In this document: positions 6,137 through 64,000 of the stretch, piece by piece
Position numbering within the stretch: position 1 is the first letter of the stretch
Layout of the letters: the number at the start of each line of letters is the position of its first letter
NCBI GenBank assembly: GCA_964394425.1
Contig: CAYMXP010000004.1
Location: 15,874 to 79,873, forward strand
Source of the DNA: an uncultured Chryseobacterium sp.
GTDB lineage: Bacteria; Bacteroidota; Bacteroidia; Flavobacteriales_F; PHOS-HE28
Length of the DNA stretch: 64,000 nt
Reading direction: 5' to 3'
Position numbers and translations under genes: made by a program
Notes under the pieces: model-generated
What the model was told of the DNA's origin: nothing
The model's input: the letters and a program-made list of their open reading frames with translations, nothing else
Databases searched by the model: none

Positions 6137-8027
6137 TCGCCGCATCGCGCTGGCCGCCGCGCTGCTCGCCCCGGCCCTGCTCCCCGCGCAGCGATCCATC
6201 CTCGACCGCCCGGTGGAGGTGCATGCGAACAACGTGCGCCTTTCCGAAGCCCTGGCGATGATCGCCCGCGATGGCGGCTTCAAGCTCAGCTACAATTCCG
6301 CGCTGGTGAAGGGTGACAGCGTCGTGAACTTCTCTTCATCCGGCACGGTCGAAGCGGTGATGCGCCCCCTGGTGGGCCGTCGCATCCGCATGAAGGAGAG
6401 CGGCGCCCACCTGATCCTGCTCGAGGAAGGCACGGGCAGGCGGAAGTTCACCGCCACCGGCACGGTGGTGGACCGCGCCACGGGCGATGGATTGGCCATG
6501 GCCTCCATCCACGAGGTGTCGGAGAACAACTCCGCCATCACCGACGCGCAAGGACACTTCTCCATCGAGTTGTCCGGACGGCGCGACCGGACGCCGCTGC
6601 TGCTCTCGCGCAGGGATCACCGCGATACGGTGGTCTACGTGGGTCGTGATGGCGGGGTGGGCCGGGTGGCGCTGCAGGCTCTGGGGCAGGTGGAGCACAT
6701 GGAGGTGCGCTGCGAGTTCGATCGCTGCGCGGTGGAGGAACTCGGCGTGGCCCGCCTGCTGGTGCCCGAAGCACAGATGGACCAGGCCTCGAACATGACG
6801 GCGGTCGAACGGCGGACCATCCAGGCCTCGTTGTGGCCCAGCGTCGGCACCAACCGCAAGATCAGCGGCGCCGTGGTGAACCAATGGTCCTTCAACCTGC
6901 TGGCCGGCTATGCGCGCGGGCTCGAAGGCTTCGAACTGGGGGTGGGCGTGAACATCGAACGCGAGGATGTGAAGGGTGCGCAGATCGCGGGGCTGGCCAA
7001 CCTGGTGGGCCGCAACACCAGCGGCGTGCAGGTGGCCGGTGGATTGAACCACACGATGCGCTCGCTCAACGGCCTGCAGATCGGCGGCCTGGGCAACACG
7101 GTGTGGGACACCCTGAGCGGCGTGCAGATCGGCGGCGGCGCCAACGTGGTGAAGGGCGGCATGCGCGGGACGCAATTCGCCGGCTTCTGCAACGTCACCA
7201 CGCAGAAGCTGGACGGCGCGCAGATCGCCGGCGGCGTGAACGTGACGGTGAAGGACGTGAACAAGGCGCAGGTGGCCGGCGGCTTCAACTACGGCCGCGA
7301 GGTGCGCGGCGCGCAGGTGGCCGGCGGCTTGAACTTCGCCTGGCGCGGTGTGGGGGGCGGCCAGGTGGCCGGAGGGATCAACTATGCGCGACAGGTCACC
7401 GGCGGGCAGGTGGCCGGCGGGGTCAACGTCGCCGTCGATACCGTCCGCGGCGGGCAGGTGGGCGTGGTCAATTTCGGTCGCGTGGTCGAAGGAGGGCAGG
7501 TGGGCATCCTCAACGTCAGCGACACGATCTCGGGCGGCAGCGTGGGCTTCCTGAGCTTCGCATGGCGCGGCTACCACCGCTTCGAGTTCTCGACCACCGA
7601 TGCGCTGCCGTTCACCATGGCTTTCCGCACCGGCACGCGCGCCTTCCACAATACGTTCAGCTATTCACCGCCGCTCTTCGACGAGCGATGGGGATTCGGA
7701 TATGGCATGGGCACCGAAGCGCGGCTCGGGCAACGCGGCTGCCTCAACATCGAGGTCACCGCCGAGCACGTGAACGAACAGACCGCCTGGATCGATGCGG
7801 TGAACATCCTGGGCCGGCTCGAAGTGCTGCCGGGCCTGAACATCGGTCGGCACGTGGTGCTTTTCGCCGGCCCCACCTGCGATCTGCTTTTCAGCGACTG
7901 GCGCGATGCGGAGGGCAACTACCTGAGCACCATCGCGCCCGCGAACCCGCTCGCGGACGAGATCCAGGACGACCTGCGCCTGCAGACCTGGATCGGCTTC
8001 CGCGCCGGCCTGGGCCTGCGGTTCTGA
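6120..8027 (+). CDS. STN-domain / CarboxypepD_reg-like outer-membrane protein with about 12 tandem ~19-aa G-x-Q-[VI]-[AG]-G repeats
   Basis: STN-like segment (VRLSEALAMIARDGGFKLSYNSALV), then a CarboxypepD_reg-like segment (FTATGTVVDRATGDGLAMASIHEV...DAQGHFSIEL). Repeats of the form GAQIAGLANLV / GVQVAGGLNH / GAQVAGGFNY follow. The C-terminus ends in an aromatic residue (LGLRF), as in OM beta-barrels. Confidence 0.8.
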   Translation: MAMGVDRRIALAAALLAPALLPAQRSILDRPVEVHANNVRLSEALAMIARDGGFKLSYNSALVKGDSVVNFSSSGTVEAVMRPLVGRRIRMKESGAHLILLEEGTGRRKFTATGTVVDRATGDGLAMASIHEVSENNSAITDAQGHFSIELSGRRDRTPLLLSRRDHRDTVVYVGRDGGVGRVALQALGQVEHMEVRCEFDRCAVEELGVARLLVPEAQMDQASNMTAVERRTIQASLWPSVGTNRKISGAVVNQWSFNLLAGYARGLEGFELGVGVNIEREDVKGAQIAGLANLVGRNTSGVQVAGGLNHTMRSLNGLQIGGLGNTVWDTLSGVQIGGGANVVKGGMRGTQFAGFCNVTTQKLDGAQIAGGVNVTVKDVNKAQVAGGFNYGREVRGAQVAGGLNFAWRGVGGGQVAGGINYARQVTGGQVAGGVNVAVDTVRGGQVGVVNFGRVVEGGQVGILNVSDTISGGSVGFLSFAWRGYHRFEFSTTDALPFTMAFRTGTRAFHNTFSYSPPLFDERWGFGYGMGTEARLGQRGCLNIEVTAEHVNEQTAWIDAVNILGRLEVLPGLNIGRHVVLFAGPTCDLLFSDWRDAEGNYLSTIAPANPLADEIQDDLRLQTWIGFRAGLGLRF

Positions 8028-8097
8028 ACTTTTTTTTTCCCCCGGATGGGGGTAGCCGGAGAGGCCGCTGTCTTAGGGGAAACCGACCACGACCCCC

Positions 8098-10470
8098 ATG
8101 CACTTCCGCGACCTCAGGACCTTTCTCAGCCTGCTCATCGCCGGCCCCATCGCCATCCACCTCGCCGCCCAGGGACCGGCGCCGGGCCTTCACCAGACCG
8201 TGCGCGGCACCGTGCTGGACAACGACACCCGTGAGCCGCTGTTCGGCGCCAGTGTGATCGTGGTGGGCACCGATCCGCTGCTCGGTGCGGGCGCCGATGT
8301 CGACGGCCGCTTCATCATCCCGCAGGTGCCCACCGGCCGCATCGACCTGCTGATCCGCGCCGTGGGTTACGAGGAACAGCTGATGCCCAACCTGCTGGTG
8401 GTCTCGGGCAAGGAACTCGTGCTGAACGTGATGATGCAGGGCTCGGTGACCATGCTGCAGGCGGCCACCGTCACGGCCGACAAGCCCAACGGCGAGCTGC
8501 GCAACGACATGGCCGTGGTGAGCGCGCGCAAGATCAGCGTGGAAGAGACCTCGCGCATCGCCGGCGGCATCAACGACCCGGCGCGCATGGTGGCCACTTT
8601 CCCGGGCGTGGCCGGCGACCCCACCGGCGACAACAGCATCATCGTTCGCGGCAACTCGCCCAAGGGCGTGCTGTGGCGCCTCGAAGGGATCGAGATCCCC
8701 AATCCGAACCATTTCAGCGAGGAAGGCAGCACCGGTGGGCCGATCAACGTGCTGAACAGCGACATGCTCGACAATTCGGAGTTCTACACGGGGGCGTTCG
8801 CACCCGAGTACGGCAACGCCACCAGCGCCGTGTTCGACATGCGGCTGCGCAACGGCAATGATCAAAAGCGCGAATACACCTTGAAGGCCGGCATCCTCGG
8901 CACCGACCTCACGGCGGAAGGACCATTGCCCGGGCTGAACGGCGCCTCCTACCTGGCCAACTACCGGTATTCCACCCTCGCGCTGCTCGACCAGGCCGGC
9001 ATCGTCGACTACCAGGGCGTCCCGAAGTACACCGATGCCTCGTTCAACGTGAAGCTGCCCACGCCGCACATGGGTGTGCTCTCCGTCTTCGGCCTCGGCG
9101 GGATGAGCCACATCATCCAGGAGGAGCGCACCGAGACGGGCGACACGCTGTATGGACGTTCGGACTACGGCTCGCGCATGGGCGTGATCGGCCTCACCCA
9201 CACCGTGCGGCTGGGCGACGACAGCTACCTGCGCAGCATCGTGTCGATGAGCGGCAACGGCAGCACCTGGGACTACGACGCCACGACCGCTCCCGGGGAG
9301 GTGGAGCTCGCTCCGTACGGCAACGACGACCTGAACCGTTGGGCCACGCGCATCAGCACCACGCTCAACAACAAGCTCAGCGCGAAGCACACGTTGCGTT
9401 CAGGCGTCATCGTCTCGGTGGATCAATACCGCATGTCCTCGAGCTACTTCAATGAAGAGAGCGACCGGATGGAAACCACGCTCGATGACGACGGGCAGGC
9501 CACGACTTTTCAAGCCTTCTCCAGTTGGAAGTGGCGCTGGAACGAACGCTGGAGCATGACCAGCGGCTTCCACGTGCTGCACTACGCCATGAACGGCAGC
9601 ACCTCCGTGGAACCCCGGCTGGGCCTTCGCTTCCAGATGCGTCCCGATCGCGCGCTGACCTTCGGTACCGGACTGCATTCTCGCACCGAAGGGGTGATGA
9701 CCTACCTCGCGCGGAACACCGATGCGAACGGGAACGCCCACCAGCCGAACCACGATCTGGGCCTTTCCCACGCCGCCCATTTCGTGATCGGCTACGAGCA
9801 GATGTTCGCCGAGGACATCCAGTTCAAGGTGGAGACCTACTACCAGCAACTGTACGGCGTGCCGGTGGAGAACGATCCCACCAGTTCGTTCAGCACGCTG
9901 AACATGTCCGCCTGGTTCACCAACAAGCCACTGGTGAACGAAGGTGTGGGACGCAACTATGGGACGGAGCTGTCCATCGAGAAGTTCTTCACCCGCGGAT
10001 GGCACGGCCTGGCGACCGTCTCGCTGTGCGATGCGCGCTACAAGCCGCTCGATGGCGAATGGCACAACTCACGGTACAACATCGGCAGGGTCGCGAACGT
10101 GCTGGCCGGTAAGGAGTGGAAGGTTGGCGGTGAAGGGAAGGACCGTGTGCTGGGAGCGGGATTCCGTTATTCCCTGATGGGTGGTGTGTACGCCACGCCG
10201 ATCGACCTGGAGGCGAGCATCGAGGCCGGCGTGGAAAAGGAGGGAAGCCCGGCATGGAGCGAGAAGGGCGACGACATCCACAAGCTCGACCTGGTCTGCA
10301 CCTACCGCGTCGGCCGCCCAAAGGCGAGCCACGAGTTCAAGCTGGACGTGCAGAACGTGCTGAACGCCCAGACCCCGGTGTACCATTACTTCGATGCGCG
10401 CACCGGTACCATCAAGGATGTGCCGCAGCTGGCCTTGTTGCCCGTGCTGCAATACACCCTGCGGTTCTGA
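8098..10470 (+). CDS. TonB-dependent receptor (CarboxypepD_reg N-terminus, plug, beta-barrel)
   Basis: Signal peptide, VRGTVLDNDTREPLFGASVIVVG, plug motif IVRGNSPKGVLWRLEGIEI, and 790 aa ending in ...LQYTLRF. Confidence 0.9.
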   Translation: MHFRDLRTFLSLLIAGPIAIHLAAQGPAPGLHQTVRGTVLDNDTREPLFGASVIVVGTDPLLGAGADVDGRFIIPQVPTGRIDLLIRAVGYEEQLMPNLLVVSGKELVLNVMMQGSVTMLQAATVTADKPNGELRNDMAVVSARKISVEETSRIAGGINDPARMVATFPGVAGDPTGDNSIIVRGNSPKGVLWRLEGIEIPNPNHFSEEGSTGGPINVLNSDMLDNSEFYTGAFAPEYGNATSAVFDMRLRNGNDQKREYTLKAGILGTDLTAEGPLPGLNGASYLANYRYSTLALLDQAGIVDYQGVPKYTDASFNVKLPTPHMGVLSVFGLGGMSHIIQEERTETGDTLYGRSDYGSRMGVIGLTHTVRLGDDSYLRSIVSMSGNGSTWDYDATTAPGEVELAPYGNDDLNRWATRISTTLNNKLSAKHTLRSGVIVSVDQYRMSSSYFNEESDRMETTLDDDGQATTFQAFSSWKWRWNERWSMTSGFHVLHYAMNGSTSVEPRLGLRFQMRPDRALTFGTGLHSRTEGVMTYLARNTDANGNAHQPNHDLGLSHAAHFVIGYEQMFAEDIQFKVETYYQQLYGVPVENDPTSSFSTLNMSAWFTNKPLVNEGVGRNYGTELSIEKFFTRGWHGLATVSLCDARYKPLDGEWHNSRYNIGRVANVLAGKEWKVGGEGKDRVLGAGFRYSLMGGVYATPIDLEASIEAGVEKEGSPAWSEKGDDIHKLDLVCTYRVGRPKASHEFKLDVQNVLNAQTPVYHYFDARTGTIKDVPQLALLPVLQYTLRF

Positions 10471-55320: not shown

Positions 55321-56582
55321 CCCGCCAGGATCGCCTTCGCGTAGTTGCTCCAGCTCATCCCGCGCGTGGCCTCTTCCACGTTCTTCGGTGGGATCGGCCG
55401 CTCGATCATCCGCTCCATCGCGCGGGCCATGTCATGCACGTCGCCCGGCGTGGCGAGGTAGCCGTTCACCCCATCGGTGATCGTCTCGGGGAAGTGGCCC
55501 ACGCGCGTGGCCACGGCCGGCAGCTTGAAATTGTAGCTGAGGCTTTCCACCCCGCTGGGCGTGGCCGTTTCATAGAACAGCACCACCGCATCGCTCGCCT
55601 GGAAGTATTGCGGGACCTCTTCGTTCGGCACGAAGCGGTTCACCAGCATCACGCTGTCGCGGAGGCCGAGCCGGTCGATCAGCTCCAGCGGCCGGTAGTC
55701 GCGCTCGTCGTCGGCCTTCTTCAGGAACAGCCGCTTCATGGTCCCGAACACCGCGGTCTTCAGCCACGTGCCCAGCTTGCGTTCATCCAGCGTGTTCCAG
55801 AACGACTCGCCCACGACCAGCAGGCTCACGTCGTCGCGCTTTTTCGTCAGCTCCGCGAAGGCGCGGATGCACCAGTGCAGACCCTTGTACTTGCGGATGA
55901 ATCCGAAGAAGAGGAAGACGTGCTTGCGAAGCCCATGTGCGCGCTTCCATTCCTCCTTGTCGAACGCCGGATCCGGCTTGAACAGGGAGTAGATGGGGTG
56001 ATAGAGCTTGATGATGGATCGCTGCCCTGAAGCCGATGAGCGAACGCCGGAAGTGGTCAGCACCAGCTCCGATCCAGGCAGCAGCGCCTTCAATTCGTCG
56101 GCGGTCTTGAAGGCGTGCGCGATGAAGGTGTGACCGTGCTTGAGCGCCATGCGCGTCAGGCGGGCATCCAGCGAGCTCTGCTCCTTGGCGGCCACGAAAT
56201 GCAGGTCGAAGAGGACCTCGGCTCCGGTGGACTTGCGCAGGCGCTTCGCGATGTAGCCCAGCGGGATGCCCTGCGTGGGGTTGTACCACTGGATGATCAC
56301 CTTGTCGGGCCTGAGGTCCGCGATCAAGCGCGCGGTCATCGCCCAGGTACCCGGTCGGTTCCAGTTGGTGATGTAGTGAACCGGGATGTCGTAGCCCTCG
56401 AGGAAGCTGTGGCGGCTTGCCTTGTCCACGAACTCGCGCGGGATGATCGCCGGGTATTGCTGCGTCCAGCTCACGATGTGTACCTCGGCGCCTTCATCAT
56501 GCAGCGCGCGGGCGAGCGCGGTGTTGTACTGCGCGATGCCCCCCTTGAAGCGCGGGCCTGGGCCGAAGCAGACGATGCGCAT
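55317..56582 (-). CDS. glycosyltransferase family 4 (GT-B)
   Basis: MRIVCFGPGPRFKGGIAQYNTALARAL at the N-terminus, and C-terminal YETATPSGVESLSYNFKLPAVATRVGHFPE. Start at the internal ATG 56582. Confidence 0.85.
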   Translation of the reverse strand: MRIVCFGPGPRFKGGIAQYNTALARALHDEGAEVHIVSWTQQYPAIIPREFVDKASRHSFLEGYDIPVHYITNWNRPGTWAMTARLIADLRPDKVIIQWYNPTQGIPLGYIAKRLRKSTGAEVLFDLHFVAAKEQSSLDARLTRMALKHGHTFIAHAFKTADELKALLPGSELVLTTSGVRSSASGQRSIIKLYHPIYSLFKPDPAFDKEEWKRAHGLRKHVFLFFGFIRKYKGLHWCIRAFAELTKKRDDVSLLVVGESFWNTLDERKLGTWLKTAVFGTMKRLFLKKADDERDYRPLELIDRLGLRDSVMLVNRFVPNEEVPQYFQASDAVVLFYETATPSGVESLSYNFKLPAVATRVGHFPETITDGVNGYLATPGDVHDMARAMERMIERPIPPKNVEEATRGMSWSNYAKAILAG

Positions 56583-56598
56583 GCGGCTTGGAGTTAAC

Positions 56599-56885
56599 CG
56601 CGACGACGCGACGACGCGACGCATATGTGAGGCCACAAGCCGGCATCGAGCGTTCGCCGATCGCGACGACCATGCCTGCGCGAAGCCGCTTCGGCGAAGG
56701 CAAGGCGCGACGACGGAACGTCTATCTTACGCAACAGGCCGGCATCGAGCGTCCGCCAAGCGCGACGACGCGACGACGCGACGCATATGTGACGCCACAA
56801 GCCGGCATCGAGCGTTCGCCGACCGCGATGATCATGCCTACGCGAAGCCGCTTCGGCAAAGGCAAGGCGCAACGACGCGACGAAC
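56599..56885. repeat. about 1.8 copies of a 162-bp tandem repeat built from three sub-elements
   Basis: CGCGACGACGCGACGACGCGACGCATATGTGA starts at 56599 and again at 56761. Copies are about 94% identical over ~122 nt. Sub-element CAAGCCGGCATCGAGCGTTCGCC occurs a third time at ~56735. Confidence 0.85.
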
Positions 56886-56982
56886 AGGCGATGCGATAGG
56901 CCTGCATGCAGCATGACCCCAGCGCCACGACGTGACGCCGCGGGGGATCCGCGGGGTGAGGGTACCAGCATGGTATCCATCA

Positions 56983-57381
56983 TCACTGGGTCAGGTTGTT
57001 TACCACGCGGCGCATTCCATCCTTGAGCAGGGCACTGTGGAAGTTCAGGATCAGGCCAAGACGGTTCCCGGTCAATTTCAAGTAGGTGATCACCTGTGCC
57101 ATGTGAACGGGATGGAGCTCCTCGACGGCCTTGACCTCAATGATCACCTTGCGCTCCACCCAAAGATCGAGACGATATCCCACGTCGAGTTCAACACCAC
57201 GATAGACGATCGGCAGGGGCACCTGCTTCTCCACGGCCATACCCGAGCAGATCAACTCATGAAAGAGGCACGCCTCGTAGGCACTCTCCAACAGACCCGG
57301 CCCGAAATGCCGGTGCACCTTGAACGCGGCATCAACGATGCCATCCGCGATCTGGTTCTCATGCGATCCTTCCCAGTTCAT
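56983..57381 (-). CDS. GxxExxY family protein (PD-(D/E)XK-like)
   Basis: IVDAAFKVHRHFGPGLLESAYEACLFHEL (G-x-x-E-x-x-Y), DLWVERKVIIEVKA and LILNF. Start at the internal ATG, because the upstream track extension is translated repeat DNA. Confidence 0.8.
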   Translation of the reverse strand: MNWEGSHENQIADGIVDAAFKVHRHFGPGLLESAYEACLFHELICSGMAVEKQVPLPIVYRGVELDVGYRLDLWVERKVIIEVKAVEELHPVHMAQVITYLKLTGNRLGLILNFHSALLKDGMRRVVNNLTQ

Positions 57382-57427
57382 GCGTTGCGCTCCATCTGAT
57401 GAAAACACGTCGCGTCCCGGTCCATTG

Positions 57428-57505
57428 TTCTCTCCGTCCCGTCGCGTCGTCGCGTCGTCGCGGTTCATCTTTCTCTCCGTCCCGTCGCGTCGTCCCGGTT
57501 CATCT
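57428..57505. repeat. two tandem units (43 and 35 nt) carrying the inverted copy of the CGCGACGACGCGACGACGCGAC motif
   Basis: TTCTCTCCGTCCCGTCGCGTCGT(CGCGTCGT)C[GC]CGGTTCATCT occurs twice. 57441-57462 is the exact reverse complement of 56599-56620 and 56761-56782. The second unit overlaps the epimerase stop codon. Confidence 0.8.
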
Positions 57506-58534
57506 TTTCAGCAGGGCTGCATCATACACCCGCCTCATCCCCTCCTCGATCGGGATCTTCGCCTTCCAGCCCAGGTTCTTTTCCACCCACGACATGTCAC
57601 AATAGCGGCTGTGTACGCCCACCGGCTTGTCGAGCAAGGGCTTGATCGTGGGCTTGTACCCGGCGAAGGAGCAGAACAGCTCGATCAGCTCGATGAAGGT
57701 GGTGAGCCGTCCCATGCCGATGTTGATCGCCCGCCCATCGCCGATCCTGTCCATGGCCAACAGGGTGAGGTCCAGCACGTCGTCGATGTGAACGAAGTCT
57801 CTGCCCTGCCGGCCCGTGCCCCATACCTCGAAGGGATCCTCCTTCCGCGCGGCGCGCGCCGCGATCGCCGGCACGGGATAGCTCAGGTCCTGGTCTTCCC
57901 CATACCCGCTGAAGGGCCGGATGCAGGTGACGTGTACGCCGTAGTGCTGCGCGGCGATCTTGGCGAGGAACTCGCCGGTGAGCTTGCTCCAGCCGTAGGT
58001 CATGTCCGGCTCGCCCATCCGCTTGAAGTCGATGTCGGTCTCCTTCAGTTGCAACGTGTTGCTTTCGGTCTGAAGGTCCACGGGATAGGCGGCGCTGCTG
58101 CTGGGATAGAGCAGCCGCCCGGGCTTGTTGCGGCAGCAGTAGAGGAACATCTCCGCGTCGATGCTCAGGTCCTGGGCCACCAGCATGGGATCGCCGTCGA
58201 TCTTGCTGCGGCCGCCCACGATGGCCGCGAAGTGGAAGAGGTCGGCAAAGCCCTCCACGTCCAGGCCGTAAGCCTTGCGGAAATGCGCCGGATCGCGGTT
58301 CAGCTCGCGCAGCACGTCGCGCAGGTCGGCCTTCAGGAAGAAGAGCCGGCCGCCGCCGTAGACCTCCAGGCCCCGCTCCTCCCCTTCCTTCTTCCACGGC
58401 GCCCAGTCCGAGGGGTGCGTGCCCACGCTCAGGTCGTCGATGAAGAGCACGCGGTCGCCCGTGGTGGCGTGCAGTCGCTTGACCATGTTGCGGCCCACGA
58501 AGCCGCATCCGCCGGTGACCAGGTGCGTGCGCAT
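57500..58534 (-). CDS. NAD-dependent epimerase/dehydratase (extended SDR)
   Basis: VTGGCGFVG Rossmann motif and the YGWSK catalytic Y-x-x-x-K. Start placed at ATG 58534 rather than the TTG of the track. Confidence 0.9.
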   Translation of the reverse strand: MRTHLVTGGCGFVGRNMVKRLHATTGDRVLFIDDLSVGTHPSDWAPWKKEGEERGLEVYGGGRLFFLKADLRDVLRELNRDPAHFRKAYGLDVEGFADLFHFAAIVGGRSKIDGDPMLVAQDLSIDAEMFLYCCRNKPGRLLYPSSSAAYPVDLQTESNTLQLKETDIDFKRMGEPDMTYGWSKLTGEFLAKIAAQHYGVHVTCIRPFSGYGEDQDLSYPVPAIAARAARKEDPFEVWGTGRQGRDFVHIDDVLDLTLLAMDRIGDGRAINIGMGRLTTFIELIELFCSFAGYKPTIKPLLDKPVGVHSRYCDMSWVEKNLGWKAKIPIEEGMRRVYDAALLKR

Positions 58535-58618
58535 CGGCGGCAAAGATGGAATTAGCGCGGCAGCTGCGATGGCGTACCTGCGGTTACGCGCTAACCATGC
58601 GCACTCCCGAGATGGGCC

Positions 58619-58756
58619 TCAGGGTCCCGAGGCGGAAACCCAGCGGCGGGAGAGTAGTGCAGGCCATGCATGTGTCATGAGCGCGTTGCGTTCCTCCACC
58701 ATGTCCTTGAAAGTGGAGGAGATAAAGACCCGGATGCGACGGTTCACGGTGGGCAT
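58619..58756 (-). pseudogene. truncated 5' fragment of a second DUF4062-type gene (45 codons)
   Basis: Hand translation gives MPTVNRRIRVFISSTFKDMVEERNALMTHAWPALLSRRWVSASGP*. It shares RVFISSTFKDM..ER..L.....P.L with residues 20-45 of the adjacent 1218-aa protein. Too short to appear in the ORF track. Confidence 0.6.
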
Positions 58757-58853: not shown

Positions 58854-61800
58854 TCATGCCCCGCGCAACTGACTCAAAAGTGATGAAAGTCGAGCACGCG
58901 TCTCGGGGTCATGCACTTGGTCGATGATCGTTGCGGCTTCTTTGGCCAACACACCGATCTTGCCAAACTCACTTGATTCAATATTGAAAACAATCGAATT
59001 AAGCAGTGCTCTACCAAGTTGATCCACGTCCTCGCTCTCTCTGGCTGTCGTCACCTGCTCTTCAAAGCATCCACGCGCATCATCCCAACGTTCGAGGAAT
59101 CGTGCAATTAGCCCGCTGGTTCCGAGCACGAATGCCAGCCGGTCCTTCCATTGATGCAGTTCACAGATTTGGCGCGCCCGCGTTGCGAGTCTCCAAGCTT
59201 CCTCCAGTCGATGGCGATCGGGAGACTGCATTGACATTTCCCACAAGAGCGTGGCCTCATTGGAAAGGACAAGCTGCTCGGCTTCGTCATCATGCAATCG
59301 TGAGGCTATTGTTCTCACATCCCGAAGCTTCATAAGCGCCTCTTCCATCCTCCCCATACGCTTCAGGGCACCAGCAAGATCCGACGAAGCGGCGAGCGCT
59401 TCAGCTTGTGCTCCGGCCTGCGTGGCCAGACTTTCAGCCTTCTCGAACTCATTGCATGCCTCATTCAAGCAGTTCTGCCCTAAGAGATCCCTACCGCGCG
59501 CTAACGCTCGTCGGGCCTCTATGGCCGCAGGCACCTCCTCACGCCTACCAAGACTCTGGAGGGCACTTGTGCTAGCATTGAGCTCCTGAGGCGATTGACG
59601 ACCCCTTCGCATCTTCACCTGCCCTTCCAAAGCAGCTCGCATTGCATCCGCCAACCCGATACGGCGCACCTCGTCAAGTATCTCCAACCGCTCATGCTCC
59701 TCGAATCTTGGCAGCAGGGCCGCTTGAACAGTAATACAATGGGCGATTAGGTCGGCTTCACCAAACTCTGCACTTTGCTTCAGGGCCAACTGGCTGCTTT
59801 CATACGCTCGAACCCATTCTTTCAAACGTGAATACGCATGCGCCATTCCGGCAACGGCAATAATCCTGCTTCGTACCAAGTCATACTTCGTTGCGACTTG
59901 CCCGGCCTCGGTAAAGTAATTCAGTGCCGTTTGCGGATCACCATGCCTCACCTGCAAACTTCCTTGGTTGTTGAGGCACTTTGCCACTCCTTCCCAATCC
60001 TCCATCTCCCTCGCTATCCCTTCTTCCTCAATATGAACTCTGTTGGCGTCCTCAACGCGCCCAAGCTGTGTAAGAATCCCAGCACAATTCGTTAGTGCGG
60101 CTCTGAGGTGGCGCCGGTTTCCGGTGCTTCTTGAGATCTTCGCGGCGTGTTGCGCGCAATCCAACGCTTTCTCGTGATTCCGATCAGCCATCCAGTACGC
60201 CACTTCTGAAAGAAGGCTTGATGCAGTTCCCTCTTGGTCCCCGTGCCGCTCACTGATCTTTCGCGCCCGCTGAATCAGGTCCAGCGCGGTTCCCCTGTGA
60301 CCAAGCCTAATATGAATGTCTGCCAATTGCTTGAACAAATGAGCATTGCCCGGAAAGTCCTCTTTCCCCTCCAATCGACGGATCAATTCGTCGGTAGCTA
60401 TGCGAGCAGCCTCCATATCGCCCAGATACCAACTCAATGACCCAATAGCGCCCAGAACCGGCAGATCGAGTGTGCTTGGTCTCTGTAAAAGTTGATGACA
60501 TGCGTCCTGCGGACTCATACCCGTGTGTTGTTGAATCTCCACCCACATCCGCCGGAGTGACGCTTCGTCAGAAAGTCCCAATCCACCGAAGTAAACAGGG
60601 CTTGACAGCAGTTCCTTCAATCGACTCCACTGCGCTGAGCCCTCCAAGTGCCAAGGAAGCTCTTCGATACTTCGTGCTTTCCCGATATGTATTTCGAAAT
60701 AATCAGCGAGGGAGGTATGTACGCCAATCTGCTCCTCTGGCTTGGACATGTAGCGAGCACGCACTGCTTCGAAAAATGCCGCGTGCGCAAAGCACAACAC
60801 CCCCGAATGATCAATCAAAACCCGCCCGAGAGCACATCGAATTGGCGCCCAGAGCGCAGCCGGAAGGCGCCTGGAACCAGTGCCCAGAACGTCCAACAAC
60901 TCCAGTTCTGAAAGACCGCGCCGAGCCGTGCCAAGGAAGCTCATTGAGTCCATTACCAGTCCAGGCCGGTCCCGCTCGTAGTCGCGCTCAAATCGCGACA
61001 GCATGAGCTGGAACAATTCTGACATCGAATTCGCCCGGAGGTAGTTTGACAGGCTGACGTCCAGAAGTTCTGGTTGCCCGAGGATCCGGATCTGGTCGAG
61101 TACAGTGCGCAGGTAAAGCGGGTTGGCGGTCGCAGCGCATGCGACTATCCGTTCGACACGTACGGGTTCCAACTCCTTCCGAAATCCTGAAAGGTATCGG
61201 CGGGTCACTTCGCTTCGCTCCGTCGCATCGAGGGGTGCGATGGACAAAACCGGCCAACCACGCCTCACGAGCGCGGCATGCACTCGGCCAGGCCCCGTAG
61301 CTACTATGACCCGCACTCCATCGGGAAATGTTTGAGGAAGCCACCGCAGGTCGTGGTCATCGGGGTTGTCCAGCTTATCGCAACCATCAAGGACGATGAG
61401 GATCCGCCCATTTGCTGCTCGCGTGACAGCCATGCCAAGAAACACCCTAAGTATGGCAGACCGATCCTCAATGTCACCGCCGAAATATCCTCCGCCGAAA
61501 CTGGAGCCCAGTTGATCGATCAGGCGAGCCAACAGCGCGGAAGCATTCGAACTAGTTGATGATGCGCCTACAACGTGGAAAACTGCGATCAGGTCCTGGT
61601 GAACTTGTTTGTAACGCAGAAACCAATTCGCAAGCAATGCCGATTTCCCTGACCCTGACGCGCCAGTTATCACGAGCGGTAAATCGTTCCCAGTCATGTG
61701 AGCGTCCAGGCGCTCTCCGTATTCCTCGCGCCCCACGTATGCGCCTTGACGTGCGCCATTCCCTACTTCAATCTCAGCAAGTTCCCAGGCGGCAGCTTCG

Positions 61801-62510
61801 TGAAGTGCGACTTCGCGTTCGACATGATCGGGACGCTGTTCTTCGGGGAAGAGGGAATCGATCAGTGCAGTGAAGTCCTCTAGGATCCATTTGCCTACCT
61901 CCTTGGGATCTGCATAAGGTTCGCGCAGTTGGCAGAGTCCTTCATCACGCGCCCGTCGGATCTTGTTCTTGAGTTGCTCTAGTTTCTCCGCTTGTTCCTC
62001 ATTCTCCGTTGCAAACTTCTGCCGTTCTTCTTCTGGCAAGGTCGCTGAGTAATTCGCATCACGGATGTAGAAGAAGGCGTGCGGTCGCATCTCTTCCATT
62101 CGCAGAACCCCATGGATAATTTCTAGTTCGGTCACAGAGCACCCCCCAACCACATGTTCCTGTAACCAGGGCTCGGTCTCGATCAGTTCCTGTGGGAGTT
62201 CATCAGGGATCCAGCCATAGCGCTCGCCAAGCAGGCCAATGAAATATGGCCGGCATCGATGGATCTCCTCGAGACAAATGGGCAGAACTTTCCCATCGGC
62301 TTTTTGCTCATCGGTCACACCCCATCGCAGATCCACTTCACCCCACGTCACACCGCGCGATTCACAGAGCTTGCGAAGCTGAGGGAATACCGAGAGCACA
62401 AGCTCGTCGCGCTCCCCTTGCATGTCTTTGAACGTCGAGGAGATGAAAACCCGAACGACCCGACGGACATTTCCTTTTGGAGGACTTAGGACAAGATCCA
62501 GTGTGCTCAT
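58854..62510 (-). CDS. NLR-like STAND NTPase: DUF4062-like N-terminal domain + NACHT-type P-loop NTPase + C-terminal TPR array
   Basis: N-terminus VRVFISSTFKDMQGERDELV...VDLRWGV...FIGLLGERYGWIP (DUF4062 pattern). Walker A ITGASGSGKS at nt 61641-61664. Walker B RILIVLDGCDKLD. The C-terminal ~500 aa are helical TPR-like repeats. No signal peptide or TM segment. Confidence 0.9.
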   Translation of the reverse strand: MSTLDLVLSPPKGNVRRVVRVFISSTFKDMQGERDELVLSVFPQLRKLCESRGVTWGEVDLRWGVTDEQKADGKVLPICLEEIHRCRPYFIGLLGERYGWIPDELPQELIETEPWLQEHVVGGCSVTELEIIHGVLRMEEMRPHAFFYIRDANYSATLPEEERQKFATENEEQAEKLEQLKNKIRRARDEGLCQLREPYADPKEVGKWILEDFTALIDSLFPEEQRPDHVEREVALHEAAAWELAEIEVGNGARQGAYVGREEYGERLDAHMTGNDLPLVITGASGSGKSALLANWFLRYKQVHQDLIAVFHVVGASSTSSNASALLARLIDQLGSSFGGGYFGGDIEDRSAILRVFLGMAVTRAANGRILIVLDGCDKLDNPDDHDLRWLPQTFPDGVRVIVATGPGRVHAALVRRGWPVLSIAPLDATERSEVTRRYLSGFRKELEPVRVERIVACAATANPLYLRTVLDQIRILGQPELLDVSLSNYLRANSMSELFQLMLSRFERDYERDRPGLVMDSMSFLGTARRGLSELELLDVLGTGSRRLPAALWAPIRCALGRVLIDHSGVLCFAHAAFFEAVRARYMSKPEEQIGVHTSLADYFEIHIGKARSIEELPWHLEGSAQWSRLKELLSSPVYFGGLGLSDEASLRRMWVEIQQHTGMSPQDACHQLLQRPSTLDLPVLGAIGSLSWYLGDMEAARIATDELIRRLEGKEDFPGNAHLFKQLADIHIRLGHRGTALDLIQRARKISERHGDQEGTASSLLSEVAYWMADRNHEKALDCAQHAAKISRSTGNRRHLRAALTNCAGILTQLGRVEDANRVHIEEEGIAREMEDWEGVAKCLNNQGSLQVRHGDPQTALNYFTEAGQVATKYDLVRSRIIAVAGMAHAYSRLKEWVRAYESSQLALKQSAEFGEADLIAHCITVQAALLPRFEEHERLEILDEVRRIGLADAMRAALEGQVKMRRGRQSPQELNASTSALQSLGRREEVPAAIEARRALARGRDLLGQNCLNEACNEFEKAESLATQAGAQAEALAASSDLAGALKRMGRMEEALMKLRDVRTIASRLHDDEAEQLVLSNEATLLWEMSMQSPDRHRLEEAWRLATRARQICELHQWKDRLAFVLGTSGLIARFLERWDDARGCFEEQVTTARESEDVDQLGRALLNSIVFNIESSEFGKIGVLAKEAATIIDQVHDPETRARLSSLLSQLRGA

Positions 62511-62669
62511 AACAATGCAGGCGGCGGCCGCAACAGGGATCTGTCGATCACCAGCAAAGCAATGTAGGTTTCGTTTCAGTACCTCAATACCAGCGTCATT
62601 CTACCTCGCTGGCTATCAGACTCCAAGCATGCACGCGTCGGTTATTCATGTAAGAACTGATATGGCATA

Positions 62670-63254
62670 TCAACACCTCACCACCCCCCACCCCACATTC
62701 GCCAGCATCTCCGGTATCTTCCTCACCGGATCACGGTCCATGTCCTTGTCCTGCTCGCTCAGTTGGTCGTAGGGCACGAGTTTGTCGTGGATCTTCAGCG
62801 CGTTGTTGCGCTCCGGGCCGTAGGTCCAGCCGCTGGCCATCTTCTCCTGCATCCAGCGGTCGTGCTCCATACGGGCAAGGCGTTCCACCTGATCAGGAGC
62901 GAAGGAGACCAGGGGTGCGTTCGCAGCGGCACGTTCGCAACGGTAGCCCAGGACCTTCAGCTTGCGCACGATGTCCATGGCCTGCATCCGGTTGCTGGCA
63001 CGATAATGCTCCGACAGCTCATCCCAAGGCACATCCGCTTCCTTGCCGGCGGCAGTTCCACGCTTGCTTCTCCAATCCTCGTGAATGGCTTGCGCAATTG
63101 GCTCGATCGCATCGAGCAGATGATCGCCGGCGCTCATGAGTTCCCGGAATCGCATGGGGTCCACGAAGTTGTCGAGCTCGCTTTCGGGGGGGAGGGATGC
63201 GCGCGTGTATCGACCATCGGATGAAGGTATCAATGCTGAGACAAGGCCGCACAT
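62670..63254 (-). CDS. RyR-domain protein (two RyR repeats)
   Basis: The second repeat LARMEHDRWMQEKMASGWTYGPERNNALKIHDKLVPYDQLSEQDKDMDRDPVRKIPEMLANVGWGV closely follows the ryanodine-receptor RyR repeat consensus. The first repeat is degenerate (IAQAIHEDW...VPWDELSEHYRASNRMQAMDIVRKLKVLGY). Start is uncertain (ATGs at 63254, 63155, 63137). Confidence 0.8.
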   Translation of the reverse strand: MCGLVSALIPSSDGRYTRASLPPESELDNFVDPMRFRELMSAGDHLLDAIEPIAQAIHEDWRSKRGTAAGKEADVPWDELSEHYRASNRMQAMDIVRKLKVLGYRCERAAANAPLVSFAPDQVERLARMEHDRWMQEKMASGWTYGPERNNALKIHDKLVPYDQLSEQDKDMDRDPVRKIPEMLANVGWGVVRC

Positions 63255-63430
63255 GGCGCTGGTGCCATTTCTTGCCCCCGCCGCAGGATCTCCGCCTCGG
63301 GACCCTGTTGACGATGTATAGGTGCGTATGCATCGACGGCAAAGATGGGATCGCTCCGCGAACGCTGTTCGACCTGGCAAACCCGCCCACGCACGTCACA
63401 CGGCTACCTTTGGGTTCCTTTTCAGAACCC

Positions 63431-64000
63431 GTGACAGCAAGGATCCTCCTCCTGTTCATCGCGCTGGGTGCCGGTCTCATGCTGCATGCCCAGCCCCCGG
63501 CCGAGAACCGCACCGATGCACAAGGCCGCAAGCAGGGCGCCTGGAGCAAGACCTGGCCCAACGGCGAGGTGCGCTACACCGGCCAGTTCATCGACGACAA
63601 GCCCGTGGGCACGTTCATTCATTACAACGAGGATGGCGTGATCACCAGCCAGCAGGACCATGCGGGCGATGGCGTGACAAGTCGCGCCGTTCACTTCCAC
63701 CCCGATGGCGAGGTGATGGCGCGCGGGAAATACACCGGCCAGGTGAAGGACAGCATATGGAACTACTACGACGATCTGGGCAGGTTGCAGAGCGTGGAGC
63801 GGTTCGTGAACGGCGAGCTCCAGGGCGAACGCGTGGTGTACTACGCCGATGGCGGCATCGCCGAGACGTCCGTTTACGACCACGGCCACCTGCACGGCCC
63901 CTGGCGCCAGTATTTCCAGGGGGGCAAGCCCAAGGCACAAGGTGGATATGTGCATGGGATCGCCGATGGCCGCATGACCTGGTACCATCCGAACGGCAAG
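63431..64000 (+). CDS. secreted MORN-variant repeat (YwqK-like) protein, 5' part (runs off the window)
   Basis: GTG start followed by signal peptide (M)TARILLLFIALGAGLMLHAQ, then repeats G.W..[WY]..NG......G.[FY] (GAWSKTWPNGEVRYTGQF, GTFIHYNEDG, GPWRQYFQGG, GRMTWYHPNG). Absent from the ORF track because there is no stop codon in the window. Confidence 0.8.
   Translation, partial: MTARILLLFIALGAGLMLHAQPPAENRTDAQGRKQGAWSKTWPNGEVRYTGQFIDDKPVGTFIHYNEDGVITSQQDHAGDGVTSRAVHFHPDGEVMARGKYTGQVKDSIWNYYDDLGRLQSVERFVNGELQGERVVYYADGGIAETSVYDHGHLHGPWRQYFQGGKPKAQGGYVHGIADGRMTWYHPNGK

Follow-up and report, generated by a model that had tools for sequence, protein, structure and literature searches.

In a 64,000-nucleotide stretch of DNA from an uncultured Chryseobacterium sp. 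(contig CAYMXP010000004.1, positions 15,874 to 79,873; hereafter the window), a minus-strand gene at 58854..62510 encodes a 1218-residue NLR in which a domain of the DUF4062 family, now called NIR or TeTIR, precedes a NACHT P-loop NTPase and a TPR-like sensor region. Directly upstream of it, on the same strand, lies a small gene (62670..63254) for a protein with RyR domains, and genes of this kind recur beside relatives of the NLR in other genomes. We read the protein as an NIR/TeTIR (DUF4062)-NACHT-TPR immune receptor that was acquired on a cassette together with an RyR partner acting on the nucleotide product of its NADase, and assign this reading a probability of roughly 0.55. An NLR of this kind has been known since 2026 and would add little on its own, the class having already been opened by four 2026 preprints; the two-gene arrangement of NLR and RyR protein is probably new.

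A 1218-residue open reading frame (ORF) at 58854-62510 with a tripartite NLR layout had been put forward in a preliminary description of the window, made from its sequence, and both points were borne out: the ORF runs on the minus strand from an ATG, and Pfam together with the family alignment recovered an N-terminal effector, a P-loop NTPase and a TPR-like sensor. In the Pfam searches all three parts scored above their gathering cut-offs, with DUF4062 (PF13271) at residues 20-103 (E = 1e-13; 51.7 bits versus a gathering score of 24.7), NACHT (PF05729) at residues 279-441 (33.5 bits versus 26.7) and TPR_12 in five stretches (E = 1.8e-16). Matches to NPHP3_N, NPHP3_hel, HTH_NWD1 and the NPHP3 N-terminal domain fell below threshold. 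The TIR-like domain and its helical extension occupy residues ~17-255 (61746..62462, minus strand, as for all parts of the gene), as delimited by a structural-database match, an AlphaFold2 model and conserved residues. The NACHT NTPase with its putative helical and winged-helix modules follows at residues 256-640 (60591..61745), the weak NPHP3_hel and HTH_NWD1 matches lying at residues 451-592. Its Walker A motif GASGSGKS (residues 283-290, including K289; 61641-61664) and Walker B motif LIVLDGCD (residues 371-378; 61377-61400) stand where the preliminary description had placed them, and the G-x-G-K-S motif is nearly invariant in the family alignment. A sequence search of the PDB returned no match for the NACHT region. 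The C-terminal TPR-like helical repeats, the presumed sensor, cover residues 641-1218 (58857..60590), with matches to TPR_12, TPR_2, TPR_7 and ANAPC5.

The gene is foreign in composition. The lowest GC content of the window, measured in 2-kb windows, falls at 59-63 kb (0.55-0.56 versus 0.63-0.70 elsewhere), as expected from the earlier remark that this is its most AT-rich stretch, and GC content at third codon positions (GC3) is 0.563 in the NLR gene versus 0.855-0.905 in the flanking epimerase and glycosyltransferase genes. The foreign composition and the candidate immune role both hold. The same DNA was found on contigs from several independent samples, one of them a 117.5-kb contig from JGI; the ORF is intact, and its DNA 99.98-100% identical, on five compared contigs from other samples, so that both an assembly artefact and a pseudogene are ruled out. 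The identical 1218-residue protein had been called on four contigs. Start calls differ between contigs, with M30 (1189 residues) on L093, L094, L096, L097 and L102 and M1 (1218 residues) on L095 and L098-L101. The 1189-residue call was rejected as a real variant, the DNA of L093-L095 being 99.98-100% identical to the window, and is a matter of start-codon choice; since the shorter form would be without beta-strand A (VFISSTF), the 1218-residue form is the plausible call.

To the N-terminal domain no established biochemical role had been attributed, which is outdated: conversion of NAD+ to ADP-ribose (ADPR) and nicotinamide has been shown for KpSwz, PsAvs2, Vulcan, Vesta and human TEP1. DUF4062 is a TIR-like NADase that mediates Swarozyc and is active in TEP1, where mutagenesis showed that the catalytic E1008 is needed for NADase activity, and where R908, R954 and R976 bind sulfate (Osinski et al., 10.64898/2026.05.01.722283). 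Renamed NIR, the domain serves as effector in an Avs2 STAND protein and in Vulcan and Vesta (Le Mouellic et al., 10.64898/2026.09.04.749371), and Evangelion is another DUF4062 defence system (Ibarra-Chavez et al., 2026 preprint). A further study describes TeTIR as an extended TIR domain that always lies directly upstream of NACHT, with F902, the RWG loop, C959 and E1008 as key residues (10.64898/2026.09.21.753143). The catalytic glutamate of these relatives is E1008 in TEP1, E97 in KpSwz and E108 in PsAvs2.

When the first 275 residues of the NLR were compared with the PDB by phmmer, the human TEP1 domain (11gz_A) matched residues 17-193 with E = 7.8e-33 and 37% identity over 173 aligned positions; the match to KpSwz was marginal (E = 7.6e-4). 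A TIR/nucleoside-2-deoxyribosyltransferase-like fold, offered as speculation in the preliminary description, thus proved a good guess. The published spacing of R908, R954, R976 and E1008 fits one register of 11gz_A only, and in that single register F902, C959 and the RWG loop land on the correct letters. Seven diagnostic TEP1 features align with the window protein: F902 with F22, R908 with K28, the R942-W943-G944 loop with R62-W63-G64, R954 with K74, C959 with C79, R976 with R97 and E1008 with E130, lysines replacing the arginines at R908 and R954. In an alignment of 67 family members, from which all statements on conservation of this domain are drawn, F22, R62-W63-G64, E82, R97, S125, T127 and E130 are invariant and C79 nearly so. 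Because it aligns with TEP1 E1008, E130 is the predicted catalytic glutamate of the NLR (codon at 62121..62123, minus strand). It sits in the segment SVTELEIIHG, past the end of the Pfam DUF4062 model and beyond the motifs VFISSTF (residues 21-27), RWG (62-64), LEEI (80-83) and GERYG (95-99). The acidic residues E81 and E82 of LEEI, earlier suggested as catalytic, did not hold up: E81 faces a glycine in TEP1, and E82, although invariant, aligns with TEP1 E962, which is not the residue shown to be catalytic. E96 of GERYG was also considered and rejected, TEP1 having a serine there. The target for mutagenesis is corrected accordingly, from E81/E82 to E130.

A confident AlphaFold2 model of residues 1-275 (pLDDT 85.7, pTM 0.81) contains five beta-alpha units, with strands at residues 18-25, 55-59, 89-94, 145-150 and 194-199 alternating with helices. 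The predicted five-strand beta/alpha pattern is as would be expected for a TIR-like fold with insertions.

The neighbouring gene at 62670..63254 (minus strand) encodes a 194-residue protein, or one of 161 residues from an alternative start at 63155; both lengths have been called on contigs. It carries two repeats of the Pfam RyR domain (PF02026, E = 1.6e-24) and matches the repeat domains of RyR1, RyR2 and RyR3 in the PDB (E ~1e-25). Only 159 bp (62511..62669, GC 0.50) separate it from the NLR, within the same cassette, and an RyR gene is also the commonest conserved neighbour of the family, which makes the earlier stand-alone, single-gene label for the NLR doubtful. In phages, RyR-domain proteins cleave 2'/3' cyclic ADP-ribose (2'/3'cADPR) to ADPR or sequester it; the affinity of RyR homologs for 2'/3'cADPR is in the nanomolar range, and RyR domains also hold ADPR (Lopez Rivera et al., PMC13232231). 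The key residues of the phage protein RyDEP, H75, W78, H100 and D117, are conserved in animal RyR repeats (PMC13232231). From motif spacing and an alignment with animal RyR, the second repeat of the window protein has the corresponding H, W (+3), H (+25) and D (+42), an H-x2-W...H...D pattern that includes the His of MEHDRW and the last Asp of DKDMD. Across 37 NLR-linked repeats, the position of H75 is histidine in 36 and that of W78 aromatic in all 37, while the position of H100 is histidine in 21 and asparagine in 12, and that of D117 aspartate in 24 and asparagine in 11.

Both genes lie within a block bounded by repeats. Downstream of the NLR, at 58619..58756 (minus strand), a stub of 45 codons, MPTVNRRIRVFISSTFKDMVEERNALMTHAWPALL..., is what remains of the 5' end of a second DUF4062 gene, as recognised from its translation and a weak DUF4062 match. 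It comprises the first ~35 DUF4062 residues (RIRVFISSTFKDMVEERNAL...) and then enters the left arm of an inverted repeat. As the stub resembles the main NLR gene over just 33 nt (85%), it derives from a different paralog and not from a recent duplication. Stub, NLR and RyR gene are enclosed by 31-nt inverted repeats (58620..58650 and 63277..63307, 90% complementary), outside which lie 32-nt direct repeats (58521..58552 and 63320..63351, 88% identical); the left copy of the latter spans the epimerase start codon, and the right copy is a diverged duplicate of the epimerase start region. No recombinase or transposase was found within the block, and the repeats look like the insertion footprint of a 4.8-kb cassette without a recombinase of its own. 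An empty site was sought among ten contigs encoding the identical epimerase; all ten carry the cassette, so insertion is not provable by comparison. A tRNA scan near the cassette found no tRNA gene, and it is therefore not a tRNA-targeted island. Promoter and terminator scans of 58.4-63.5 kb gave nothing better than shuffled sequence, the spacer between the RyR and NLR genes being without a convincing promoter or terminator. GC3 is 0.74 in the RyR gene, 0.72 in the stub and 0.56 in the NLR gene, which hints that the present NLR is the more recent arrival at an RyR-linked locus. The RyR gene was seen in a chromosomal host context on >10 contigs, and no window-type RyR relatives were found among the viral contigs of IMG/VR.

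The window NLR belongs to a large family. Sequence searches found >4274 homologs at E < 1e-5, nearly all of them with DUF4062, NACHT and TPR, and many had been named 'nephrocystin-3' by JGI. A scan of GTDB species genomes gave at least 563 loci, the best 80 of which were used for the analyses below (loci are cited as L numbers and proteins as P numbers); these 80 fall in Planctomycetota, Acidobacteriota, Verrucomicrobiota, Chloroflexota, Nitrospirota, Myxococcota, Actinomycetota and two archaea. A scan of metagenome contigs with the NLR gave two distant loci only, which were not used. The NIR and NACHT parts are well conserved, and the C-terminal region of the window protein is present at full length in few of the homologs listed: P0002, P0006 and P0007 cover 98-100% of the query, and many others (for example P0003, P0010 and P0011) cover ~70% and bear regular 42-residue TPR arrays instead. 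This is the pattern expected of fast-diversifying sensors. P0003 and P0004 have two complete NIR domains in tandem ahead of NACHT, and P0006 a canonical TIR_2 domain before NIR, in a locus (L006/L054) that also holds a RelA_SpoT-SLOG-RyR protein, two TIR_2 proteins and an HD_4 protein. Of the 80 loci, 21 contain two or three NIR genes. Effector swapping was considered for P0027, P0056, P0059 and P0071, in which DUF4062 seemed to be missing, and rejected, their starts being miscalled or truncated inside helix alpha-A. Short NIR-only ORFs similar to the stub adjoin full NLRs in L032, L056 and L065. In two archaeal metagenome-assembled genomes (MAGs; L012 and L052, Candidatus Methanoperedens and a Methanobacteriota archaeon) the NIR domain is 49-58% identical to that of the window, and the presence of NIR-NACHT genes there suggests that the family has been passed from one domain of life to another; in L052 an RyR gene lies 4.9 kb from the NIR-NACHT gene.

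Evidence for a link between the two window genes comes from these related loci. When the window RyR protein was compared by phmmer with all ORFs of the 80 loci, RyR-domain ORFs were found in 26 of them, and in 18 of the 41 loci with full flanks (at least 3 kb on either side of the NLR), usually as its immediate neighbour. Of 30 such ORFs, 23 lie within 1 kb of an NIR-NACHT ORF and 11 within 200 bp; in L017 and L025 the genes form alternating NLR-RyR-NLR-RyR arrays. With 20,499 proteins found by an RyR profile among 1.836 billion representatives (1.1e-5 per protein), ~0.018 RyR genes would be expected by chance in 80 loci of 20 genes each, giving a Poisson P of ~1e-72, or ~1e-21 for a 100-fold higher frequency of RyR genes in these phyla. 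If placement were uniform, RyR genes would adjoin the NLR in this way with P ~7e-16.

An unbiased clustering of the non-NLR ORFs also ranked RyR first among the recurrent families, one cluster spanning 21 loci. The next clusters, of 9-10 loci each, were TIR-STAND-TPR proteins, TIR-TPR together with TIR-FGE-sulfatase proteins, WD40 proteins, which may be C-terminal fragments of NLR genes, and SLATT/DUF4231 membrane proteins. Proteins of the SLATT_1/DUF4231 type, which have four hydrophobic segments, occur in nine loci, including L033 (8185-9996), L029 (7577-9928) and L067 (7282-9309), and in L029 and L033 their gene is directly upstream of the NLR; they are a second candidate partner or effector family. 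In a reverse test the closest RyR homologs were picked irrespective of NLRs and the contexts of four were examined. Three of the four lie beside genes for TIR-type domains or STAND proteins: one is 6 bp upstream of a TIR_2-NB-ARC protein, one adjoins a TIR_2-TrkA_N-RyR protein and a TIR-WD40 protein, and one sits amid TIR genes and fragmented NACHT, TPR and TEP1-type WD40 genes. The fourth, on a 3.9-kb contig, has another RyR protein as its neighbour, and no TIR or STAND gene is recorded there.

As far as could be searched, this host-side linkage of NLR and RyR genes is unreported. The DUF4062 and TeTIR papers, the Thoeris-discovery preprint and a 2020 survey of conflict systems contain no mention of RyR, and no report of the pairing was found in a search that left most subscription journals outside its reach; the sole paper found to join 'RyR domain' to Thoeris was the phage RyDEP study.

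The same counts bear on a simpler explanation, that the NLR is, as first proposed, a self-sufficient single-gene system of abortive infection, and that the RyR gene merely rides on the same mobile cassette without being related to it, encoding for example an anti-Thoeris or NAD-salvage factor. A single gene can suffice, as the NIR-STAND-TPR protein PsAvs2 works alone in E. coli (10.64898/2026.09.04.749371); phage RyR proteins are counter-defence factors (PMC13232231); the two window genes differ in GC3; and 54 of the 80 loci have no RyR gene within 10 kb. However, an enrichment of more than 1000-fold, with 23 of 30 RyR ORFs within 1 kb of an NLR, and the alternating arrays are hard to reconcile with a passenger. 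Moreover, most of the RyR partners are large host proteins with several domains and are not phage-like, and the IMG/VR search returned no viral relatives of the window type. We consider this explanation unlikely.

In the related loci the RyR domain of the partner protein is C-terminal and is carried on varied N-terminal modules: RelA_SpoT with SLOG, a P-loop ATPase with an uncharacterised N-terminal half, TrkA_N, or TPR with TPR-S. Most TrkA_N-type partners begin with one or two hydrophobic segments, the layout of a channel with two transmembrane segments and an RCK domain (2TM-RCK), and are putative ligand-gated 2TM channels. The TrkA_N-RyR proteins are ~580-625 residues long (L020 13939-15741, L079 1155-2873, L087 6471-8228, and L080, L082, L084, L065 and L052), and their genes are mostly convergent with the NLR; a RelA/SpoT-SLOG-RyR partner is encoded in L025 at 7271-9940. 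When a P-loop-RyR partner was compared with the PDB by sequence, the RyR domain alone matched, so that its N-terminal half stays uncharacterised. PADLOC and NCBIfam searches of the RyR partners gave only a match to the candidate system PDC-S33 (RelA/SpoT type) and TrkA-like matches; PADLOC contains no models of the partners themselves. Small stand-alone RyR proteins, like that of the window, also occur in L017, L076, L077 and L083.

This architecture suggests a different role for the pair, namely signalling and not an NAD+ drain: the NIR domain would make an ADP-ribose-type molecule, and RyR receptors would switch on the outputs fused to them (2TM-RCK channel, RelA/SpoT-SLOG enzyme or P-loop ATPase), the window RyR protein being a ligand-bound adaptor or a signal-clearing enzyme. 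A constant C-terminal RyR domain on varied modules beside an NLR has the architecture of a second-messenger sensor, these loci repeatedly contain SLOG and SLATT modules, and small RyR genes occur together with large RyR-effector genes in L017, L089, L091 and L092. Nanomolar binding of 2'/3'cADPR by RyR homologs (PMC13232231), and the fact that isolated prokaryotic TeTIR domains are without plain NADase activity (10.64898/2026.09.21.753143), point the same way. By contrast, TEP1 and KpSwz gave ADPR and nicotinamide only, with no cyclic products (10.64898/2026.05.01.722283, 10.64898/2026.09.21.753143), PsAvs2, Vulcan and Vesta defend via NAD+ depletion (10.64898/2026.09.04.749371), and the window is without an RyR-fused effector. 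On balance we hold signalling by the window pair to be a possible, though less probable, account. With similar reserve we propose for the family as a whole that host RyR domains could either sense or enzymatically clear ADP-ribose-type molecules produced by the TIR-like NADases of NLRs, within a widespread and unrecognised NLR-nucleotide-RyR pathway of bacteria and archaea.

For our preferred reading, a cassette-borne immune receptor with an RyR partner, we infer the following mechanism of the pairing. By analogy with related systems, the C-terminal TPR-like region would bind a trigger, most likely a phage protein. The NACHT domain would then oligomerise in an NTP-dependent manner, as the STAND paradigm and the intact Walker motifs suggest, gathering the TIR-like domains, and the clustered NIR domains would hydrolyse NAD+ via E130, stopping the infected cell as in abortive infection. 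Given that RyR domains bind nucleotides of the ADP-ribose type or cleave them, the most likely task of the RyR protein is to deal with the nucleotide that the NADase produces. The protein might serve as a buffer or off-switch, for which its H/D dyad is intact, or as a ligand-bound adaptor or receptor.

Several observations weigh against this reading. For three prokaryotic TeTIR domains studied in isolation, no NADase activity was detected in vitro (10.64898/2026.09.21.753143), and human NWD1, NWD2 and NPHP3 are inactive or weak (10.64898/2026.05.01.722283, 10.64898/2026.09.21.753143), so that catalysis in the TeTIR clade is not guaranteed or needs oligomerisation. A Foldseek search with the N-terminal model against the PDB (to April 2026) gave no match at E <= 1e-3; the best TIR domain was that of RPS4 (E = 0.057), the other weak matches were to Rossmann or flavodoxin-like folds, and DUF4062 structures were not among the matches listed. 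With Foldseek uninformative, the TIR-like assignment rests on the sequence match to 11gz_A. PADLOC returned no system model for the NLR, just a generic TPR model and a marginal mad8 match, and NCBIfam generic TPR matches alone; with no match to a family-specific STAND or sensor profile in PADLOC, the protein is not filed as Avs (AVAST types 1-5), although its predicted mode of action is Avs-like. The RyR ORFs of the related loci lie on the same strand as the NLR in 17 cases and on the opposite strand in 13, which is consistent with linkage but not with a strict operon. In the window itself, the GC3 values of the RyR and NLR genes indicate that the two may not share a long common history, and the RyR protein, small and without an output domain, has the least clear role among the partner types. 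Finally, the cassette is surrounded by housekeeping and cell-envelope genes, not by the several systems of a defence island, with a MORN-repeat gene overlapping mnmA, an S8 peptidase gene and aat on one side, and the epimerase gene, a PDDEXK_3 gene and glycosyltransferase genes on the other.

Some of these points would also suit a STAND protein that is not antiviral, either a regulatory or cell-fate ATPase (for example in programmed death or kin conflict of complex bacteria) or a scaffold like TEP1 or NPHP3, with a catalytically silent NIR domain serving for interactions. The in vitro inactivity or weakness of prokaryotic TeTIR, NWD1, NWD2 and NPHP3, the housekeeping context and the missing PADLOC match are consistent with such a role, as is the abundance of the family, with paralog arrays, in MAGs of Planctomycetota, Acidobacteriota, Verrucomicrobiota and Myxococcota. 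Yet the catalytic glutamate and the substrate-site residues are strictly conserved (the counterparts of R908 and R954 being lysines), and the foreign composition and defined boundaries of the cassette also speak against such a role. The neighbours in related loci are conflict-system modules (TIR, SLATT, SLOG and RelA/SpoT), and NIR genes are reported to be enriched beside defence genes (20% versus 3.9%; 10.64898/2026.09.04.749371). A non-antiviral function therefore appears improbable to us, more so than any of the other explanations.

Among tested systems, the closest in function is PsAvs2 of Pseudomonas chlororaphis, and the closest in sequence is the TEP1 domain. PsAvs2 shares the DUF4062/NIR-STAND-TPR plan of a single-polypeptide sensor and effector, and its catalytic glutamate, the predicted counterpart of E130, is essential for defence (10.64898/2026.09.04.749371). 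The comparison is one of layout. PsAvs2 is an Avs2 protein with a terminase-sensing domain, whereas the window NLR is without an Avs match in PADLOC; the latter also differs in its P-loop, a NACHT of the NWD1/NPHP3/TEP1 type, in its extended, TEP1-like NIR domain and in its conserved RyR partner. In human TEP1, NWD1, NWD2, TTC41 and NPHP3, as in the window protein, a domain of the NADase type stands directly before NACHT, and the TPR tail of the window protein resembles those of NPHP3 and TTC41. Unlike TEP1, the window protein is bacterial, is without the TROVE/vWA extension, has TPR where TEP1 has WD40 repeats, and is encoded in a mobile cassette with an RyR gene. We know of no antiviral role for TEP1 in the vault. 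Swarozyc (KpSwz), Vulcan, Vesta and Evangelion differ from the window NLR in being without a STAND NTPase and in having auxiliary helical, HEAT or other sensors.

If the RyR protein were a receptor, the logic would be that of Thoeris or of plant TNL-EDS1-helper NLR signalling, in which a TIR-type enzyme makes an ADPR-derived ligand that is detected by a separate reader. Here, however, the producer would be an NLR with an NIR instead of a canonical TIR domain, and the reader RyR instead of SLOG, Macro or EDS1. Gene pairing of the Thoeris kind is found in the related loci, whereas the window RyR protein is without an effector domain, and NIR domains are not known to make a signal molecule. With RyDEP the window RyR protein shares the PF02026 domain, its small stand-alone form and, compared by residue pattern, the H-x2-W...H...D motif. 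RyDEP is phage-encoded and anti-Thoeris, whereas the window RyR gene is chromosomal and sits in a host cassette next to an NLR gene, and IMG/VR yielded no close relatives of it; a phage counter-defence role does not fit it.

The pairing makes systematic genomic partners, in bacteria as well as archaea, of two modules that were given biochemical roles only in 2026, the DUF4062/NIR/TeTIR NADase and the ADP-ribose-binding RyR domain. If it is functional, many NIR-type NLRs may signal via a nucleotide product and not merely drain NAD+, which could explain the apparent inactivity of isolated prokaryotic TeTIR domains, and the host role of RyR would mirror that of the phage counter-defence protein RyDEP. 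Should the wider NLR-nucleotide-RyR pathway be real, some members would couple it to putative 2TM-RCK-RyR ion channels, and it would parallel in prokaryotes, and might even be ancestral to, the animal cADPR-ryanodine-receptor axis and plant TNL-helper signalling. Whether an ADPR-family ligand is coupled to channel opening is still debated for animal ryanodine receptors, and, given a functional pairing, the small and tractable bacterial 2TM-RCK-RyR proteins could show whether RyR does so.

Two further genes lie near the cassette. Divergent from the RyR gene, a MORN_2-repeat gene (63314-64000, plus strand) continues past the end of the window, encodes 374-401 residues on longer contigs, and at its end overlaps mnmA by 4 bp. 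Because its GC3 (0.80) is nearer that of the host than that of the cassette, it probably lies outside the latter. On the other side, a PDDEXK_3 gene of the GxxExxY type (56983-57468, minus strand) has a GC3 of 0.72, below that of its neighbours. Tandem repeats lie on either side of this gene, one at 56706-56828 (63 nt, 2 copies) and the other at 57413-57494 (43 nt, 1.9 copies). ORFs around 56400-57500 repeat the peptide 'RDDATTRR', and on L093 and L096 the PDDEXK_3 gene has a shorter call (132 residues) and an altered spacing to the next gene. This region may be a separate small insertion.

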